Shown: positions 5,991-60,890 of the stretch, piece by piece
Position numbering within the stretch: position 1 is the stretch's first letter
How the letters are laid out: every line of letters starts with the position of its first letter
Assembly (NCBI GenBank): GCA_963787345.1
Contig: CAWBCW010000036.1
Coordinates: forward strand, 36,608 to 100,607
Length of the DNA stretch: 64,000 bases
Direction of reading: 5' to 3'
From: an uncultured Bacillaceae bacterium
GTDB lineage: Bacteria > Bacillota > Bacilli > Bacillales > Cytobacillaceae
Notes under the pieces: model-generated
The model's database searches: none
The model's input: the letters and a program-made list of their open reading frames with translations, nothing else
Told to the model about the DNA's origin: nothing
Translations under genes and position numbers: made by a program

Positions 5991-6739
5991 AATAAGCATT
6001 CCACCCCTTCCACTGATGCCCCTAATACATCACCCGTGATACCGCCAAACCAGCGAACGATTTTTCTTGAGATCACGATTAGAAATAATAAAGCTGCCAG
6101 AACTAATAGTAAAAAGCCACTCATCGCTTTTGGCCATATCAAAAAAATGGCCAAGCCCATTATGACTACATAGATCGGATAAATCCATAAGGTTCTCCTT
6201 GACGCCGCTTCTTTAAACAAAGCACCAAGACCCTCTTCTTTGGCAGATTTCACATTCAACAATAAAATCCCCATCACGATTTTTCCTAAAAACGGAATCA
6301 AGATAATAAATAGAAGGGTATACTTACTAGACCGTAAAACAATTTCATATATAAATAGAAACTTTGCACTCAAAAGCACAATAACAGATAGAACGCCAAA
6401 GGCACCGATTCTTGAATCTGTCATAATTTCGATTCGTCTCTTTTTATCCCGATAAGAGAAATAGGCATCACTGCAGTCCATCCACCCATCAAGATGAATT
6501 CCACCCGTGATGATAATCAGTGCAAACCAGATAAAAAACGCGATAGCTAATGGTGAAAAGGGTGTCCATTGTAACAAAACATAAAGAATCACACTATAAA
6601 GGATTCCTTGTAAAAATCCTAGCACTGGAAACATTTTAATCGCCTTATTGATATGCGGACGATCCATCGGCACTTCATAAGGAATTGGAATGCTCGTGAA
6701 AAATTGAATACACATCACGAGACCTTTGATCATCTTCAT
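5948..6739 (-). CDS. cobS: Adenosylcobinamide-GDP ribazoletransferase (cobalamin synthase)
   Basis: [31 protein letters not shown] and [10 protein letters not shown]. Confidence 0.95.
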
Positions 6740-7608
6740 GACTTAAGGTTCTCCCAATCCCAAATCATCCGCTTGATTCTATCCCAATCCAAATGAGCTC
6801 CCATCTTCGCAGCTAGTGAATCATAGCGATTTCCCTTAAACCCTTCCGCATCAACGATATCCCTATTGTCTTTATTCCGAAACTCGTCATCGGAAAGGGA
6901 ATCCTCAGGGTCGATCATATGGTTATGAATATAAGGCAAGACACCAACAACGGGAACCCCTGTCTTGTCCTCAATCCACTCCACCCCATCTTTAAAAAGA
7001 CTGGAGTCCCCACGAAATTTATTGATGATAATGCCCTTCACTCTCCTGCGTTCCTCCATCGTCATCAATTCTAACGTTCCAACAAGACTGGCAAAAACTC
7101 CGCCTCGATCAATATCCGCCGCTAAAATCACAGGTACATCTGCCATTTCTGCAACCTTCATATTCACAAGCTCTCGATCCTTTAGATTCATTTCAACCGG
7201 ACTCCCGGCACCTTCCAAAACCAAAAGCTCATACTCTTTTTCAAGTTGTTCGATTGCCTTTCCAATAACCTCTAGCCCTTTCTCATAAAAGGATTCCCGA
7301 TATCCTCTGCCAGACAAAGATTCTACTCGTTTCCCTAATAAAACTACCTCTGAAACCTGGTCTGATTGGGGCTTTAATAAAATCGGGCTCATCCAAACTG
7401 TCGCTTCCGTTCGTGCTGCTTCCGCTTGAATCCCTTGGGCAAGCCCAATTTCCGAACCATCCGCCGTCAAATAAATGTGGTTGGACATATTTTGCGACTT
7501 AAACGGAGCTACCTTAAGCCCCTCATCGGAAAATAGCCGGCATAAAGCTGTGACAATTAAACTTTTTCCAACATCTGAAGCCGTGCCTTGAATCATTACA
7601 CCTTTCAT
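6736..7608 (-). CDS. cobQ: Cobyric acid synthase, synthetase domain only (glutaminase domain absent)
   Basis: [40 protein letters not shown] and INKFRGD; 290 aa. Confidence 0.9.
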
Positions 7609-8186: not shown

Positions 8187-9241
8187 TCTTGCATCGCCTC
8201 CAATAGCTGCTTATTTTCCTCCGTTGTCCGAACGGCAAATCTCAGCCATCTCCCTTCGAGGCCAGGGAAATTGAACGTATGCCGAGGAACGATTCCTTTA
8301 GCTAATAAAAACTGGAACAACGGGAACTGATCATCTAGCCCGTGATCTTTTAATAAATAAAAATTTACCTTCGAATCGGTCACTAGGAACCCATTCTTTT
8401 TATAAAAGGAAAAGAGATCTTCACGTTGAGAGTCAATAAATTGAATGGTATGTTGGACATATTCTTCTTCCTCTAAACATAGTTCCCCTATCTTCATCGC
8501 CATGCTATTCACACTCCAATGGGATTGGAAGGTTGCAAGTGTCTCAATGATTTCGAGACTTGCAATTGCATACCCAAGGCGAAGTCCAGGAATCGCATAG
8601 ACTTTAGTCATCGACCGGAGTAGTAGTAAATTTGCATTGTCACGAAGCAAAGGAACTAATGATTCGTAATCTTGTACGAAGTCATAAAAGGCTTCATCAA
8701 CAATAAGATAGCACCCCTGTTTCTGACATTCTTTTAAAATACGCTCGATTAGTCCTCTATTAAAATACAAACCCGTTGGATTATTGGGATTACAGAAAAA
8801 TACGGCGTCTATATCTGTCACCATATCTGAAAAAGAATCAATGTCCACTTCCCAATCCTTTGATAGATGAAAATAGGTAACCTCACATCCATTCACTTTG
8901 CAGACTCTTTCATATTCAGAAAAGGCAGGCTGAACAACCATCACCTTTTTCCCGGCTAACCATCTCCCGATCAGACTGATGAGTTCAGAGCCGCCGTTTC
9001 CAATTAAAATTTGCGTTTCATCAATTTCCTCATGATGAGCAAGCTTCTGTTTCAATAAAGTACTGTGTGGATCCGGATAAGTTTCGATCCCTTGGAGTAA
9101 TTTTCCCCAGTGTTCCTTCACAGAGGCTGGGGGTCCAAATGGATTAATATTCGCACTAAAATCAATGATCTTATCAGGCTGCTCCAGTCCAGCTGCTTGA
9201 TATAAATAATGTGGATTAGATCCATGTGAGGGCCAAGTCAA
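8156..9241 (-). CDS. cobD: L-threonine-O-3-phosphate decarboxylase
   Basis: HG.N, DFSANINP, GNGGSELI, CNPNNPTG, DEAF and SMTKVYAIPGLRLGY; cob operon context. Confidence 0.9.
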   Translation of the reverse strand: MTWPSHGSNPHYLYQAAGLEQPDKIIDFSANINPFGPPASVKEHWGKLLQGIETYPDPHSTLLKQKLAHHEEIDETQILIGNGGSELISLIGRWLAGKKVMVVQPAFSEYERVCKVNGCEVTYFHLSKDWEVDIDSFSDMVTDIDAVFFCNPNNPTGLYFNRGLIERILKECQKQGCYLIVDEAFYDFVQDYESLVPLLRDNANLLLLRSMTKVYAIPGLRLGYAIASLEIIETLATFQSHWSVNSMAMKIGELCLEEEEYVQHTIQFIDSQREDLFSFYKKNGFLVTDSKVNFYLLKDHGLDDQFPLFQFLLAKGIVPRHTFNFPGLEGRWLRFAVRTTEENKQLLEAMQEWRSIHPSSS

Positions 9242-13778: not shown

Positions 13779-13849
13779 AGAAAGACCGTTGTTTACTAGC
13801 CGTTCATACACCTTCCTATCCTCGTAGGTTTGTGTTGGTGCAGAAAAAC

Positions 13850-14040
13850 TAGGCAGGTCTCCTGGCTCTTGGTCATCGTTCCCCGCTCCTTCCCGTACAG
13901 ATTGTACAGTGGATGTGCAGGTTACTCGCAATTACAGTGGCGGGACCGCGTTGGATTTTCACCAACTTCCCTATTAAGTCTTAAAAAAACAGAAAAGCCG
14001 AAATGCTAAAGATCTTTCTTCTTTTCCAAAGACACCTAAT
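13850..14040 (-). ncRNA. Cobalamin riboswitch
   Basis: Minus strand reads AGGGAAGTTGGTGAAAATCCAACGCGGTCCCGCCACTGTAA...CCACTG...GGGAAGG...GAGCCAGGAGACCTGCC. Confidence 0.95.
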
Positions 14041-50141: not shown

Positions 50142-50380
50142 AATATAGGGCAGTTCTCCTTCCGGGGAACTGCTTTTTTATATGTACTTTTCAAAAATAA
50201 GGAAATAGATTCAATTGGGGTCGATCTCCGTTCAATTATTAGATTAGGACAGCAACAAAGGGATATTTTCACGAATAAGAAGTCCCTTTCATAAAGATAC
50301 CCATACTTTTATTACCCTACTTTCGCTAATTCCAATAAAAATAGCCCTAGTCTCAATAACTAGGGCCATTCTTATAAATC

Positions 50381-52699
50381 TTATAGATATGGACTTTCGT
50401 GTTTAGCTTTCAATTGATTCCAACGACGGTCTACTTCTTTTTCGAACTCTTTTAGTAGCTCGCTGTTTTCTTCTGTTAACATATGTTTCGTTTTACCCAT
50501 ATGTTTTAACCAGTCTTTAACTTCAATCTTTTTCTTCTTAGCTTCTGGATCGTGAGTAATCGTTGTAATGCCTTTCTCTACTTCATATAGCGGGAAGAAG
50601 TTAGAGTTAACAGCAGCACCTACAATTTCTTGTCCTAATGTTTCATTTGACTTCCAGTTCAACGGACAGGCAATAAGGATTTTACCATAAACCAATCCTA
50701 CATTGTTTGCATACCATTGTGCTTTAGCAGCCTTTTTCAATAGGTCACGATCAAATGCTTCCGAGCCAGTAAACACATAAGGAATGTGTGTTGCAGCCAT
50801 AATTTGAGCTGTATCCTTATGGTGGAATGTTTTACCTTGTTGGTGTGATCCAACGCCAGAAGTACTTGTCATATGTCCAAGTGGAGTTGAGTATGACAAT
50901 TGGCTTCCTGTGTTCATGTATCCTTCGTTATCGTACTCAAGGATAATCATTTTGTGGTTACGTAGAGCCGTACCAATTGCAGGTCCCATACCAATATCCA
51001 TACCACCGTCACCAGTAATCATAACGAATGTAAAGTCATCGCTTAGTCCTAGTTCGTCAAACTCACCACGGCGCTTTCTTTCGTGGAACATTTCAACAAG
51101 TCCAGATAGAGTCGCTGCACCGTTTTGGAATAAGTTATGGATATAAGTTGCTTTATGTGAACTGTATGGATAACCAGTTGTAACGATCATTCCACAACCA
51201 GTATGGAATAGAGCAACAATATCGCCTTCAATCCCTTTGAAGAATAACTCAAGTCCAGAGAAGATACCACATCCAGGACATGCACCATGACCGGAAGAAA
51301 TACGTTTTGGTTTCTTCGTTAACGCACGTAGTGGTGGAATCTTAACTTTTAGTTCTCCAGTTTCTTCATCAGGAGTTACCGTAATAAGGCCTGTATTAAC
51401 ATCTTCTTTTTTCAATGGTTCTACACGACGTTTTGGTGCTAGATCTGGGTTACCAGGAGTATGTCCAAAATAGTCAAATGCAACTTCTACTTTATCAGCT
51501 TCTACTGCATCAATTGCTAATTGGAAGAACTTTTCAGCATCATCTGCATAGAAGTCTTTACCACCTAGTCCATAGACACGGCTAACTACTTTAATATCAC
51601 TATTACCATAAGTGTGTAGAGCTGCTTTTATTTCAAGTGACATATTTCCACCATACGCACCGTATGAATCTCCACGGTCACCAACTGTAATAGCTTTTAC
51701 ATTTTTCAATGCTTCAGCAATTTGCTTTTGTGGGAATGGGCGAAGGATATTTGGTGAAATAACCCCTGCTTTAATTCCTTTTGCACGTAATTGGTCGACA
51801 ACGTCCTTACAAACTTCAGTTGCTGAGTTTAGCATAAAGACAGCTACTTCAGCATCTTCCATTTCGTATAAGTCAAGAACTGGATATTCACGACCTGTTA
51901 ATTCTGCATATTCTTTAGAAATTCTTTCGAATACTTTTTCTGCATTATACATTGCTTCAGATTGTTGATAACGGTTGTTAATTGTATCTGGCTCATTCAT
52001 ATAAGCCCCAATAGATACTGGATTATCACGATCTAATGCATGCGGATAGTTTGTTGGAAGTGGACCAATGAACTTTTGAACCGCATCATTATCTTTAATC
52101 ACTTGTACACGTCTCTTTTGGTGGGAAGTAAAGTAACCATCATAAGAAACGATAACAGGTAAGCGAACTTCAGGATCTTCCGCTAATTTAAGCGCCATGA
52201 TATTCATATCATAAACAACTTGCGCGTCACGTGCCATTAATATTGGCCAGCCAATATTTAACGCAAAGTAAAGGTCTGAGTGGTCACCATGAATATTTAA
52301 TGGACCAGAAACAGAGCGGTTAACTAAGTTTAATACCATTGGCATACGTGTTCCAGATTGAACTGGTAATTGCTCAAGCATATATAAGAAACCATTCGCA
52401 CTTGTTGCGTTGAATACACGTCCGCCACCAGTAGCTGCACCATAACAAATACCTGCAGAACCGTGTTCCCCGTCAGCTGCGATTAATTTAATGTCGTGTT
52501 GACCTCTCGCTTTCATTCCATCAAGGAATTGAGCTACTTCTGTTGAAGGAGAGATTGGGTAGTAACCCATAATATGGTAATTTATTTGATGTGCTGCATA
52601 GGCAGCCATTTCATTTCCTGATTCAAATACGATTGCTTGTTCAACTGAACCTTCTGATAGCCCAGCTTTTTCTTTATCAAGAATGATCTCTTTTGACAT
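50381..52699 (-). CDS. 2-oxoacid (pyruvate):ferredoxin oxidoreductase, fused alpha-beta subunit
   Basis: Alpha: YYPISPST, GEHG, NATSANG and YGLGG; beta: GACPGC, TGC, GDGG...DNEGYMNTG TPP motif and CP. Confidence 0.92.
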   Translation of the reverse strand: MSKEIILDKEKAGLSEGSVEQAIVFESGNEMAAYAAHQINYHIMGYYPISPSTEVAQFLDGMKARGQHDIKLIAADGEHGSAGICYGAATGGGRVFNATSANGFLYMLEQLPVQSGTRMPMVLNLVNRSVSGPLNIHGDHSDLYFALNIGWPILMARDAQVVYDMNIMALKLAEDPEVRLPVIVSYDGYFTSHQKRRVQVIKDNDAVQKFIGPLPTNYPHALDRDNPVSIGAYMNEPDTINNRYQQSEAMYNAEKVFERISKEYAELTGREYPVLDLYEMEDAEVAVFMLNSATEVCKDVVDQLRAKGIKAGVISPNILRPFPQKQIAEALKNVKAITVGDRGDSYGAYGGNMSLEIKAALHTYGNSDIKVVSRVYGLGGKDFYADDAEKFFQLAIDAVEADKVEVAFDYFGHTPGNPDLAPKRRVEPLKKEDVNTGLITVTPDEETGELKVKIPPLRALTKKPKRISSGHGACPGCGIFSGLELFFKGIEGDIVALFHTGCGMIVTTGYPYSSHKATYIHNLFQNGAATLSGLVEMFHERKRRGEFDELGLSDDFTFVMITGDGGMDIGMGPAIGTALRNHKMIILEYDNEGYMNTGSQLSYSTPLGHMTSTSGVGSHQQGKTFHHKDTAQIMAATHIPYVFTGSEAFDRDLLKKAAKAQWYANNVGLVYGKILIACPLNWKSNETLGQEIVGAAVNSNFFPLYEVEKGITTITHDPEAKKKKIEVKDWLKHMGKTKHMLTEENSELLKEFEKEVDRRWNQLKAKHESPYL

Positions 52700-52732
52700 G
52701 TTACTTAATCACCTTTCACTATAGATTATTGA

Positions 52733-53737
52733 TTATTTTACAAGTTCAAATAAATGTGGAACTCGGTTTGCTTGTGCATATCCGTCATCCGTTTCAACTT
52801 CACTTGATAGTGCGTCAGTCGGACAAGCGTGTACACATTTTAAGCAACCTTTACAATATTGATAATCGATGCCTTGAAGGAACATTTGTGGACGGCCTCT
52901 TTTATCTTCTCCCTCTTCCCACACAAAACAAAAGTCTGGACAAGCAGTATCACAGGCAGCGCAATGGATACAACTTTCCTCATGATAATGTGGCAGCATT
53001 CCTGCACGTGAAATACTTAAATCTTTGAAAATACTATTACCCGGGTCAATAACAAGTCCGCCCATTGGTTGTGTTTCATATCCAAGAGTCGCTTCTGGAC
53101 GAACGAACGGCGCAGAAGCCGCATCTGGACTTGCTTCAAATGTTTTAATTTCAACTTCGTTATATCCTCTATCGAATGTACGAAGATTTGACTCTACTAA
53201 ATGAGGGTATTTCTTTTCAAATGTACGACGAATCGTATCTCTCATGGAATCTGCATCCATAAAATCAAGAATACGGTAGAGTGCACCTAGCATCGCCGTG
53301 TTTACTCTTGTCTTTTCTTCTAATGCAATCTTTGTAGCATCAATGACAGCCATAATCCCACCGTCTAGCTCCATTCCTCCCTGAAGATCTTCAGGTGATT
53401 GCTTAGAGTTTACTAGAATTGTACTATCTGGATAAGTACCGCTTGTAACATCTAAAGTTTTATAAAGTTCATCGTGGAAAACTGCCACTACATGTGGACG
53501 CTCAACAGGCGTTGTATCACGAATATTTGTATAAGGCTCACAAAAACGAATATGACCTTTTACTGGGGATCCCTTTTTCTCAGATCCATATGATGAGAAG
53601 CTGAGGCCGTTAAATCCATTTCCAACTACACCAGCTTCAGAAAGTAATTTACCAGCTAAGTTTGCACCTAAGCCTCCAATTGATTCAAGACGAATTTCAA
53701 AAAATCCTAATTCATTTACTTTGGGTAACCTTGACAA
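52733..53737 (-). CDS. 2-oxoacid:ferredoxin oxidoreductase, fused gamma-delta subunit
   Basis: IRLESIGGLGA, YGSEKKG and NTAMLGA; two 4Fe-4S motifs CIHCAACDTACP and CKGCLKCVHACP; TTG start after GGAGG. Confidence 0.92.
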   Translation of the reverse strand: MSRLPKVNELGFFEIRLESIGGLGANLAGKLLSEAGVVGNGFNGLSFSSYGSEKKGSPVKGHIRFCEPYTNIRDTTPVERPHVVAVFHDELYKTLDVTSGTYPDSTILVNSKQSPEDLQGGMELDGGIMAVIDATKIALEEKTRVNTAMLGALYRILDFMDADSMRDTIRRTFEKKYPHLVESNLRTFDRGYNEVEIKTFEASPDAASAPFVRPEATLGYETQPMGGLVIDPGNSIFKDLSISRAGMLPHYHEESCIHCAACDTACPDFCFVWEEGEDKRGRPQMFLQGIDYQYCKGCLKCVHACPTDALSSEVETDDGYAQANRVPHLFELVK

Positions 53738-54073
53738 AGTAATTCCTCCGTTCTTTGTAGATATACATTTAAAATTTAGAATATTCATCATTTATTAAAC
53801 CCATTGTAACAGCAACTAAAAATTAGTACAACAGTTTTTTTGAAAAGTGAACGAGATTATTTTATTAATAAAATATTTTTAATCAAAATACCGTGAAATC
53901 AAAATAAAATCAATATGACAAAATTTTCCTAATATAAAAATTTATTAATTAAGTTAATAATTATTAATTTTTTTTATAGGACAGTAAGGTTTTAGCGGTT
54001 ATACAGTTTGAACAGAATCTATTATATCACCTTTCACACAAAAACCCCTTAAAAAGGGGAATTCAGCTCTGGT

Positions 54074-55324
54074 CTATTCTGATAAAATACGTTTTTGACC
54101 CTCTAATTCACGAATACTTTTTACATTCTGGGAAAACTCTAATGTGCCTAAATACTTTCCTTCTTCATCTCTAATCGCAAAATAACGAATATAGACAAAC
54201 ATATCTTTTACAGGGATCCAGAAGTCTTCCGTATCCTTCATTCCTGATTTGAAATCCTCCAATAACTTTTCAACTACATGAACGCTTTGTGGCGGATGAC
54301 AGTTTTGAACTGTCCGTCCAATGACAGCCTTCGTACGCGCAAAGATCCTTTCAGGTCCATGTGAGAAATACCGAACCACGTCGTTCTCATCTATAAAGGT
54401 TAAATCAACAGGCAAATGATTTAAGATGGTTTCCAATTGTTTAACAGACAAAATACCTGTTTCAAATCGAACGAAGCCATCATCTGGTTTCATTTCCTCT
54501 TTTTCTTTTTCAACTTCTAATGGATGGCGCTCTGGTTTCCACGTTTCGGTTGGAGCCGTTAAGCAGTAGCCGATTTCTTCACTTTCGGCGGAAATTTTTA
54601 CCCATTCGTCTTCTGTTAATGTTTCAAGAGCCATTGGGAAAAGAATATTTTCCTCTTTAAAAATCATTTCCGTTACTTCGTGAATAACAAGATTTAAATC
54701 AGCAAGTACTTCTTCCATATTTCCTTGATAATTAGTTAAATTGTTTTTAGTTTCTTTAATTGCTAGACGAATTGCATCATCAACGCCCCACATCACCTTT
54801 GTCGGACCATCAATTCCATACTTCTCAAGGAATGGGAAAAGAAGGTTCTCTTTTCTGGAGTAATGCTTATCTACATCCATTAATAGACTTAAATCTTCTA
54901 ACAATTTAAAGCGATTCTCATCGGAATCTTCTTTTTCAAAACGTTCTTTATGAAGTTGAATTTTGAAGTTAACAAGTAAATCGATTTCTTTATTTTCTAG
55001 TTTCCATGTATGAATCGGGTGTCCCGGCTGCTCTTCCGGCTTTTCGGAACGGTGAATTTCTTCAATAGAGCCTTTGAATATTGCAGTATGAACGGAACAT
55101 AAGCGTTGGACTTCTTCAACCGGAATTCCTTCTTCGACCATTAAATCATGTTCCATTTGTGAAATTTCCACTACCGTTACATCACCAACCGCTTCTTCAA
55201 ATTTAGCTTTTACTTCATCAACGTCTTTCCCAGCATGCAGTTCTTTAATAATTTCTTTTAATATTTGTTGACGTTCACTTTTCGTTTCTTTAAAACTCTC
55301 ACGGTTATTAATAAGTTCGCTCAT
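54074..55324 (-). CDS. DUF438-hemerythrin-PAS domain protein
   Basis: LHAG..V.EVK, CSVH, GHPIH, HY.RKENLLFP, EENILFP; PAS with LPVDLTFID and NCHPP. Confidence 0.85.
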   Translation of the reverse strand: MSELINNRESFKETKSERQQILKEIIKELHAGKDVDEVKAKFEEAVGDVTVVEISQMEHDLMVEEGIPVEEVQRLCSVHTAIFKGSIEEIHRSEKPEEQPGHPIHTWKLENKEIDLLVNFKIQLHKERFEKEDSDENRFKLLEDLSLLMDVDKHYSRKENLLFPFLEKYGIDGPTKVMWGVDDAIRLAIKETKNNLTNYQGNMEEVLADLNLVIHEVTEMIFKEENILFPMALETLTEDEWVKISAESEEIGYCLTAPTETWKPERHPLEVEKEKEEMKPDDGFVRFETGILSVKQLETILNHLPVDLTFIDENDVVRYFSHGPERIFARTKAVIGRTVQNCHPPQSVHVVEKLLEDFKSGMKDTEDFWIPVKDMFVYIRYFAIRDEEGKYLGTLEFSQNVKSIRELEGQKRILSE

Positions 55325-55445
55325 GAAATTCTCCCCCTCTAAGGCTTTTCGACCCCTGACGATATGTGACCTACTTTCACTACGCTGGCTATTCTATCGA
55401 ATAAGAGGCTTGCTCAAGCAGGTTAGTCATTTTTTCTATGCTAGG

Positions 55446-55673
55446 CTATTGCTTAACGGTGTATCCGTGCCTTTCAAACGTTTCGATAATCTTAGAAAGT
55501 TCGATACTTCTCATCCGGGCACCTTTTGGAAGGGTCATGACTCGACCTGCTGTTTGCAGCATGCCCTGCTTCGTGATTTGTTCAAATCCTAGTTCCTTCA
55601 TAATTTCAATAATAAAAGAATCATCTGTACATAATTCATAAACACTTTTTTCAAAGTCGATCATTCTATCCAT
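55446..55673 (-). CDS. DUF1858 domain protein
   Basis: IDFEKSVYEL...ELGFEQI...TAGRVMTL..GA. Confidence 0.8.
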   Translation of the reverse strand: MDRMIDFEKSVYELCTDDSFIIEIMKELGFEQITKQGMLQTAGRVMTLPKGARMRSIELSKIIETFERHGYTVKQ

Positions 55674-60116: not shown

Positions 60117-60890
60117 TTATTTCGCTTTTTCAAGTTCAGCAAGGAAATTATCGTTTAGGATTTTAATAAAGGTTCCTTTCATTCCTAGTGAACGGGATTC
60201 GATAACACTAGCACTTTCCAGCTTTCTTAATGCGTTCACAATAACAGAACGTGTGATTCCCACGCGGTCAGCAATTTTGGAAGCTACTAGTACACCTTCA
60301 TTGCCATTTAATTCTTCAAAGATATGTTCAACAGCTTCTAATTCACTATAGGAAAGCGAACTAATCGCCATTTGCACAATCGCTTTGCTGCGCGCTTCTT
60401 TTTCCACCTGTTCCGTACGCTCACGCATGATTTCAACCGCAACCACCGTCGCACTATATTCTGTTAACAGTAAATCATCATCATCAAAAGATTGATCTGC
60501 ACGGGATAAAATTAACGTTCCCAATCTTTCACCACCGCCAATAATTGGTACTAAAGTGGTTAAACCTGTTGGAAATACCGTTTTTGTTTCGCCTGGGAAT
60601 GCAGTGTATTCGCTGTTGACATCTGCATTAGCTAATGTCTCTTTAAGCTGTAATAAAATTCCTTTATATCTATCAGTCGCTTGACCAGTTTCTATTACTT
60701 CTCTCATATGATCCGTTTCAATTTGTTGTGCCATTGCATAGCCATGTATATTCCCATCCGTGCTAATAATAAACACATTTGTGTCAATAATCTCACACAA
60801 TAGTTCAGACATTTCCGTGAAGTTTACCGAAGTACCTCTTGTATTTTGCAACATTGAATTAATTTTTCTAACCTTCGTTAATAATTCCAT
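60117..60890 (-). CDS. codY: CodY family regulator, stand-alone paralog
   Basis: [21 protein letters not shown] and [24 protein letters not shown]; not preceded by hslVU. Confidence 0.93.

Follow-up and report, generated by a model that had tools for sequence, protein, structure and literature searches.

A two-gene locus of the pfoAB type, with pairwise-fused subunits, in an uncultured Bacillaceae bacterium

Li et al. (2016; PMC4761190) cloned the pfoAB genes of Paenibacillus sp. WLY78 and studied the operon as an electron source for nitrogenase; together with fer or fldA, pfoAB lifts nitrogenase in Escherichia coli from 10% to 35–40% of wild type. They distinguish the two-subunit PfoAB from the single-subunit NifJ, the two being 33% identical, and the P. 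graminis genes have since been reused to the same end (PMC12873634, 2026). In two papers, the lists of reported subunit types for the 2-oxoacid:ferredoxin oxidoreductases (OFORs) cover enzymes of one, two (KorAB type), three or four chains, one list adding “other types”, and the domain arrangement (III-V)(I-II-VI) is absent from both. Here we describe a gene pair with that arrangement in a 64,000-nt stretch of contig CAWBCW010000036.1 (assembly GCA_963787345.1; positions 36,608–100,607) from an uncultured Bacillaceae bacterium, referred to below as the window and numbered from its first nucleotide. The locus is most likely a self-contained two-gene operon for a PfoAB-type pyruvate:ferredoxin (or flavodoxin) oxidoreductase (PFOR); we show which domains it has, that their ligands are intact, what fold is modelled, that the genes are orthologous to pfoAB and that both are under purifying selection.

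Two adjacent open reading frames (ORFs) lie on the minus strand, exactly where the initial annotation had placed them, and all cassette features given below are on that strand. The upstream, pfoA-like gene (52733–53737; 334 aa, TTG start) encodes a gamma-delta fusion of OFOR domains III and V, and after a gap of 33 nt the pfoB-like gene (50381–52699; 772 aa) encodes an alpha-beta fusion of domains I and II, a linker and domain VI. The domain models thus bear out the porGDAB gene order, fused pairwise as (III-V) + (I-II-VI), that the initial annotation had read from the ORFs. The mechanical ORF of pfoA extends to an ATG at 53791, yet we take the TTG at 53737 to be the better and most likely start because three signs agree: a Shine-Dalgarno sequence GGAGG, read directly from the DNA at 53745–53749 and 7 nt before the TTG; the ORF starts of homologues, which coincide with the aligned position in 25 of 74; and the onset of DNA homology to relatives, which falls at 53728–53754 in eight of nine loci.

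The cassette consists of these two genes only, our ORF scan having found no further ORF of at least 60 aa in the flanking spacers. A terminator-like hairpin at 54045–54059 ends the gene upstream, and 15 nt past the pfoB stop codon stands an intrinsic-terminator-like hairpin (50334–50366) of the form GCCCTAG-9 nt-CTAGGGC followed by TATTTTTATT; the latter palindrome is found also in the plus-strand listing. From the hairpins on both sides, the gene pair looks like an independent, self-contained two-gene operon. Its own promoter would be expected in the AT-rich upstream spacer (53738–54044), where the candidate is one weak sigma-70-like match (TTGATT-16-TAAAAT, 53886–53859).

Orthology to pfoAB can be traced through the published cloning primers. 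Forward primer S6pfoAB-F matches exactly at 9148–9168 of a related locus of P. polymyxa type (L087), directly before ORFs for a 337-aa gamma-delta and a 762-aa alpha-beta protein, and the reverse primer falls just past the alpha-beta ORF with one mismatch. The proteins of this locus are collinear end to end with those of the window (PfoA, 58% identity over 330 aa; PfoB, 67% over 756 aa), and the two loci fall in one clade with 100% bootstrap support. Because the primer sites define the locus as pfoAB, and given these identities and the shared clade, we regard the window cassette, on sequence grounds, as a pfoAB orthologue.

In the gamma-delta chain, domain III spans residues 21–193 (53159–53677; Pfam POR, PF01558, E 5e-30) and holds the stretch FFEIRLESIGGLGANLAGK, invariant in our alignment of 74 homologues. 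Domain III is the coenzyme A (CoA)-binding domain of characterised PFORs. The chain scores 108 bits with the PorC_KorC model TIGR02175 (cut-off 81), and besides POR the Pfam scan returns 4Fe-4S dicluster families. After a spacer of ∼30 residues follows a complete PorD-like dicluster domain V (residues 224–315; 52793–53068), which matches positions 3–84 of the 85 in the PorD_Arch model. Of its two CxxCxxCxxxCP motifs, one begins at nt 52972 and the other at nt 52855, and their eight cysteines (C256/259/262/266 and C295/298/301/305) are invariant in the 74 homologues. The same domain carries an additional cysteine, C270 (motif CPDFC), likewise invariant in the 74. The spacer between the motifs (residues 266–295; nt 52853–52942) is ∼10 residues longer than in the lone separate PorD with which we compared it, one from a Bathyarchaeia metagenome-assembled genome (MAG) in a seven-sequence alignment.

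In the alpha-beta chain, a PorA-type model match spans residues 27–407 and includes domain I (residues 35–260; 51920–52597; POR_N, E 2e-56), on the pyrimidine side of thiamine pyrophosphate (TPP) and with the substrate pocket, and domain II (residues 283–387; 51539–51853; PFOR_II, PF17147, E 7e-25). The key residues of domain I, Ser50, Glu78, Arg128 and Ile136, map in the HMMER alignment to Thr31, Glu64, Arg114 and Ile123 of Desulfovibrio africanus PFOR. Cys85 had been a candidate clade-specific residue and was rejected, cysteine being the majority residue at that position across PorA-like sequences. Between the PorA and PorB matches lies a linker specific to the fused chain (residues 408–462; 51314–51478), 55 residues of moderate conservation (0.61–0.84), modelled with a predicted local distance difference test score (pLDDT) of ∼71–93 and a predicted beta-hairpin at 440–453. 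Domain VI, on the TPP diphosphate side and with the proximal [4Fe-4S] cluster, occupies residues 463–765 (50405–51313; PorB NF008819, E 1e-61; TPP_enzyme_C is also matched there). Its proximal-cluster ligands Cys474, Cys477, Cys502 and Cys678 do not vary among 120 close homologues or in four distant ones, and the TPP motif, GDG (563–565) with Asn591, is invariant across a 31-sequence alignment (A1); Asn596 is a further key residue. With this the statement in the initial annotation that all TPP and 4Fe-4S motifs are intact is confirmed.

An AlphaFold model of the alpha-beta chain built on a diverse 66-sequence alignment reached a pLDDT of 90.7 and a predicted template modelling score (pTM) of 0.85; an earlier model from 31 near-identical homologues (pLDDT 45) was dropped. 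Laid over the whole single-chain PFORs of Moorella and Desulfovibrio (6cin, 1b0p), the model gives query-normalised template modelling scores (TMq) of 0.79–0.82, and over the separate alpha and beta subunits of 9bt4 and 5c4i target-normalised scores (TMt) of 0.86–0.95 with root-mean-square deviations (rmsd) of 1.6–2.1 Å; domain VI on 9bt4 chain C scores 0.93 at 2.0 Å. From these overlays, the fused chain is predicted to have domains I, II and VI arranged in the canonical way. The ratio of non-synonymous to synonymous substitution rates (dN/dS), taken against three relatives, is 0.08–0.10 for the gamma-delta gene and 0.056–0.08 for the alpha-beta gene. Both genes are therefore under strong purifying selection, and values of 0.06–0.10 speak against a chance arrangement or a decaying one.

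The enzyme would work as follows. PfoB would form the catalytic core, holding TPP between domains I and VI and, in domain VI, also the proximal [4Fe-4S] cluster, while PfoA would bring domain III for CoA and a ferredoxin-like domain V that holds the medial and distal clusters. To go by solved OFORs, the enzyme in its active form would be a dimer of PfoA–PfoB protomers. It would convert pyruvate and CoA to acetyl-CoA and CO2, presumably in this oxidative direction, and pass the two electrons one at a time from a TPP radical through the three clusters to soluble ferredoxin or flavodoxin; its role may be to provide low-potential electrons when oxygen is scarce.

Pyruvate appears to be the best-supported substrate, judging from four contact residues: besides the three substrate-contact positions of domain I mapped above (Thr31, Arg114 and Ile123 in D. 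africanus), Asn996 corresponds by HMMER to Asn596, and all four are PFOR-like, Ser50 for Thr31 being a conservative change. Por-type models of NCBIfam come out on top for every domain, with 321 bits for NF007201 and 276 for PorA_Arch on alpha, and 208 for PorB as against 184 for the VorB-type model on beta. An OFOR with a different or broader substrate range (e.g. 2-oxoisovalerate, 2-oxobutyrate or aromatic 2-oxoacids) would fit the replacement of Thr31 by Ser, the long stem that sets the clade apart from every characterised enzyme, and the scores of the VorA/VorB-type and phenylglyoxylate dehydrogenase models, which lie only moderately under those of Por. We nonetheless think it unlikely, since Arg128, Ile136 and Asn596 match pyruvate-contact residues of D. 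africanus PFOR, each of the four domains gets its highest score from a Por model, and in E. coli Paenibacillus pfoAB increased the flow of electrons linked to glucose and pyruvate that reaches nitrogenase (PMC4761190, PMC12873634).

Several observations weigh against the PfoAB-type PFOR reading or parts of it. All equivalog models of NCBIfam stay below their cut-offs (e.g. 321 versus 590 bits), so the substrate cannot be read off a curated model, a point that also favours the broader substrate range. The literature searched yielded no purified enzyme of (III-V)(I-II-VI) architecture, and it is therefore from the four contact residues that we infer pyruvate specificity. On its own, pfoAB gave a small gain in E. 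coli nitrogenase, from 10% to 15% of wild type (PMC4761190). As to a role at low oxygen, a preprint lists the P. polymyxa genes “porG porA” among those without differential expression in a double fnr mutant, so that anaerobic induction is no more than a possibility; no Fnr/Rex-type box (TGTGA-N6-TCACA) was found upstream of the cassette in the window or its close relatives, such sites being scattered or subclade-specific elsewhere; and a search for expression evidence found no RNA run, the best run reaching at most 41% of the sampled words.

A species scan with one genome per species finds the two-gene cassette at 75–92% identity in Bacillaceae and Paenibacillaceae, where at least 579 species carry it, the best named match, among the matches listed, being Niallia oryzisoli (92%). 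The 120 best protein matches are all 766–777 aa long and 76–88% identical; their named carriers are Neobacillus, Ferdinandcohnia, Alkalihalobacillus, Mesobacillus, Pseudalkalibacillus and Anaerobacillus in the Bacillaceae, and Paenibacillus, Cohnella, Fontibacillus, Thermobacillus and Brevibacillus marinus in the Paenibacillaceae. With Anaerobacillus and Paenibacillus in the family, the “aerobic bacillus” of the initial annotation was an assumption about the host. Annotations of the matches are generic (“thiamine pyrophosphate-dependent enzyme”, “pyruvate synthase”, “PFOR alpha subunit”), and literature searches on the enzyme in Neobacillus, Niallia, Bacillus vireti, B. niacini and B. circulans listed no paper that contains its name. 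In all of the 80 related loci kept for comparison, the gamma-delta gene stands directly upstream of the alpha-beta gene. The pairwise-fused layout is thus real, ordinary for this Bacillus- and Paenibacillus-like group, and already named in the literature. The initial annotation had set its proposal against the outcome that the locus clusters with ordinary, well-described Bacillales PFORs of the same architecture; such clustering is essentially what we find, given the breadth of the group and the pfoAB clade, except that these relatives, ordinary and named as they are, lack a thorough biochemical description.

Nucleotide similarity to nine relatives (L001–L009; 74–85%) ends at the cassette ends or at most ∼100 nt from them, and flanking genes are unrelated even in the closest relatives, neighbours differing between genera. 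Because similarity ends at its borders, the two-gene unit lies at different chromosomal places in related species, which may reflect rearrangement or transfer. A further proposal is that the enzyme here serves specifically as electron donor to nitrogenase, as suggested for Paenibacillus. The effect of pfoAB with fer or fldA in E. coli (PMC4761190) speaks for such a role, but there is no nif gene in the 64-kb window, none of the 80 loci shows a conserved pfoAB neighbour that could be linked to nitrogen fixation, and the cassette is spread over the whole range of species counted above; we consider that specific role very unlikely here.

To place the cassette more widely, we compared it with a protein library clustered at 50% identity, in which the whole Bacillales family collapses to one representative, 69% identical to the window. 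It is followed by a handful of full-length relatives and fragments with identities of 45–65%, and outside the clade no match that reaches or exceeds roughly the full length of PorA goes above 41% identity. The representative matches are mostly metagenome proteins and include no named Hydrogenobacter or Nitrospira sequences, so for these lineages the comparison gives a bound. When 108 alpha domains are placed in a neighbour-joining tree, the Bacillales and the library proteins P0123 and P0136 form one clade with 100% support, set on a long stem; deeper nodes have 2–27% bootstrap support in this tree and 0–30% overall, and the clade has no supported sister group. The two-chain layout appears to characterise this clade, because a 305-aa gamma-delta fusion stands upstream of P0136 and a partial gene, also a gamma-delta fusion, upstream of P0123.

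These relationships leave little room for the link drawn in the initial annotation to the oxygen-tolerant pyruvate synthase of Aquificae and Nitrospira, which would run reductively, with acetyl-CoA and CO2 giving pyruvate, and serve CO2 fixation. In principle OFORs can work in either direction, other PFORs have been measured making pyruvate (PMC12337175), and the best alpha model, NF007201, is a bacterial “2-oxoacid:ferredoxin oxidoreductase subunit alpha” and not an archaeal PorA. Yet enzymes of that type have five separate subunits (PMC3578206), whereas this locus consists of two genes, with no additional por-like ORF close by, and neither the library, with its 41% ceiling as a bound, nor the tree shows a specific affinity to them. 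The alpha motif quoted as resembling theirs lies in the TPP-binding stretch of domain I, which aligns with PorA of the archaeon Methanosarcina acetivorans, with Moorella oxalate oxidoreductase and with single-chain PFORs. Nothing in the window points to CO2 fixation, the 64 kb holding no carbon-fixation genes, and the named hosts are Bacillaceae and Paenibacillaceae, none named as an autotroph in the search outputs. We therefore give a reductive pyruvate synthase hardly any credence.

A related idea, that the PfoAB clade is an oxygen-tolerant PFOR form of its own, at work in spore-formers that respire or live microaerobically, seems to us unlikely; in such a form, clade-specific features might shield the clusters, namely the structured linker joining alpha to beta, the domain V insertion that separates the two cluster motifs, and the extra conserved Cys270. 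If true, it would offer a compact two-gene source of low-potential electrons usable in aerobic hosts. PFOR supplies electrons at the ferredoxin level, which a pyruvate dehydrogenase linked to nicotinamide adenine dinucleotide (NAD) cannot, and the two-gene PFOR is already in use to boost engineered nitrogen fixation in E. coli. For the window itself, the outcome is one more pfoAB orthologue and not a new kind of enzyme.

Fusions of alpha and beta occur elsewhere with other partners. In a Bathyarchaeia MAG the alpha-beta fusion goes with separate gamma and delta genes, and alpha-beta fusions are found in Patescibacteria too. In a Bdellovibrio MAG (L081, 1752–6076), an alpha-beta fusion of 691 aa is preceded by gamma and by a 559-aa GltD-like pyridine-nucleotide oxidoreductase with ferredoxin domains, a gene content that suggests an OFOR variant linked to NAD(P). 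Six giant proteins (P0139, P0150, P0157, P0161, P0173 and P0218; 1,589–3,703 aa) in the representative library contain an alpha-plus-beta OFOR module ∼31–35% identical to the window protein. Domain reshuffling is commonplace in the OFOR superfamily, as these alpha-beta fusions with other partners and the fused III-V chain of Moorella oxalate oxidoreductase attest.

Upstream of the cassette (54074–55673, minus strand) lie two genes, one for a 75-aa DUF1858 protein and one for a 416-aa protein of DUF438-hemerythrin-PAS_10 build, whose domains suggest a possible sensing of O2, nitric oxide (NO) or iron. A functional link of this pair to the cassette was ruled out, a hairpin standing between them and the adjacency occurring in none of the 80 loci, the 92% relative included. 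Directly downstream of pfoB and on the same strand, 30 of the 80 loci, all Paenibacillaceae, have an ORF of ∼100 aa (e.g. L048, 10344–10652) that may be a third operon gene in that family; the window has no such ORF, and Pfam gave no match for any of three conserved neighbour ORF families scanned, this one among them. The surroundings in the window include an operon for cobalamin salvage and late synthesis, a tripartite ATP-independent periplasmic (TRAP) transporter, dihydroxy-acid dehydratase, PdxS and CodY. The ORF for cobyric acid synthase, CobQ (6736–7608, minus strand), has just 290 aa and matches positions 2–243 of a 480-position model, so that it seems to lack the glutamine amidotransferase half; it overlaps the start of cobS with its last 4 nt, and the operon stands under a cobalamin riboswitch at 13835–14017. 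A CodY equivalog (60117–60890, minus strand; 378 bits, cut-off 255) lies downstream of a gene resembling squalene/phytoene synthase. In Bacillus subtilis, codY sits after clpQ-clpY (hslVU); the codY gene of the window may be an additional copy, or its locus may have been rearranged.

Set beside the known systems, the gene pair carries the features of the Por-type, three-cluster OFOR superfamily (domains I, II, VI and III, the TPP motif, the cysteine ligands and the contact residues). The closest solved structure by sequence is the four-subunit PFOR of M. acetivorans (9bt4; PorABCD/PorABDG), with 212 bits for alpha and 127 for beta; it has the same five domains, no domain IV or VII, and superposes on the model with a TMt of 0.93 at 1.6–2.0 Å rmsd. 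It differs in its four chains, as against two here, and in sequence (∼31–33% identity), and the window adds the structured 55-residue alpha-beta linker and the ∼30 residues between gamma and delta. The oxalate oxidoreductase of Moorella thermoacetica (5c4i) shares the fused III-V chain (PMC5020499), and its alpha and beta subunits fit the model with a TMt of 0.86–0.95, but these subunits are separate chains, CoA is not needed, Arg31 of 5c4i_A takes the Ser50/Thr31 position and the loop at residues 128–140 differs; its NCBIfam models score far below cut-off (alpha 211 versus 500 bits, beta 133 versus 590), and the gene pair falls outside that type.

Single-chain PFOR/NifJ (6cin, 1b0p) has the chemistry, the cofactors and the three-cluster wire in common with the window, and the model follows it over the whole chain (TMq ∼0.8). 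It is, however, one chain of ∼1,170–1,230 aa ordered I-II-III-IV-V-VI (plus VII in D. africanus), whereas in the cassette II connects straight to VI and III-V form a chain of their own, and its model TIGR02176 gives 191 bits against a cut-off of 911. The KorAB type (S. tokodaii, 5b46; the 2-oxoglutarate oxidoreductase, OGOR, of Magnetococcus marinus, 6n2n) likewise has two polypeptides per protomer, arranged as (III-I-II) + (VI), but it lacks domain V and has one cluster (PMC5020499); similarity is distant (E 1e-9 to 1e-10), and the gene pair, with its domain V, scores 96 bits with TIGR03710 (cut-off 483). That the layout differs from both these types had been rightly seen in the initial annotation. 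The five-subunit pyruvate oxidoreductases (POR) of Hydrogenobacter, Nitrospira and Nitrospina belong to the same superfamily and to hosts that meet oxygen, but consist of five separate subunits (PMC3578206), where the locus has two genes, and have an anabolic role in the reductive tricarboxylic acid (TCA) cycle.

The PFOR of Magnetococcus marinus (Mmc1_1741/1742) also has two chains and three [4Fe-4S] clusters; according to PMC12337175, this two-polypeptide enzyme was purified and was active in both directions. Nearest of all is PfoAB of Paenibacillus (P. polymyxa WLY78; P. graminis IM2-2). Its hosts are Paenibacillaceae whereas the window comes from a Bacillaceae bacterium, the closest relatives of the window form a tighter subgroup at 75–92% identity, and the window has no nif context; the two-gene order and the fusions are identical in both.

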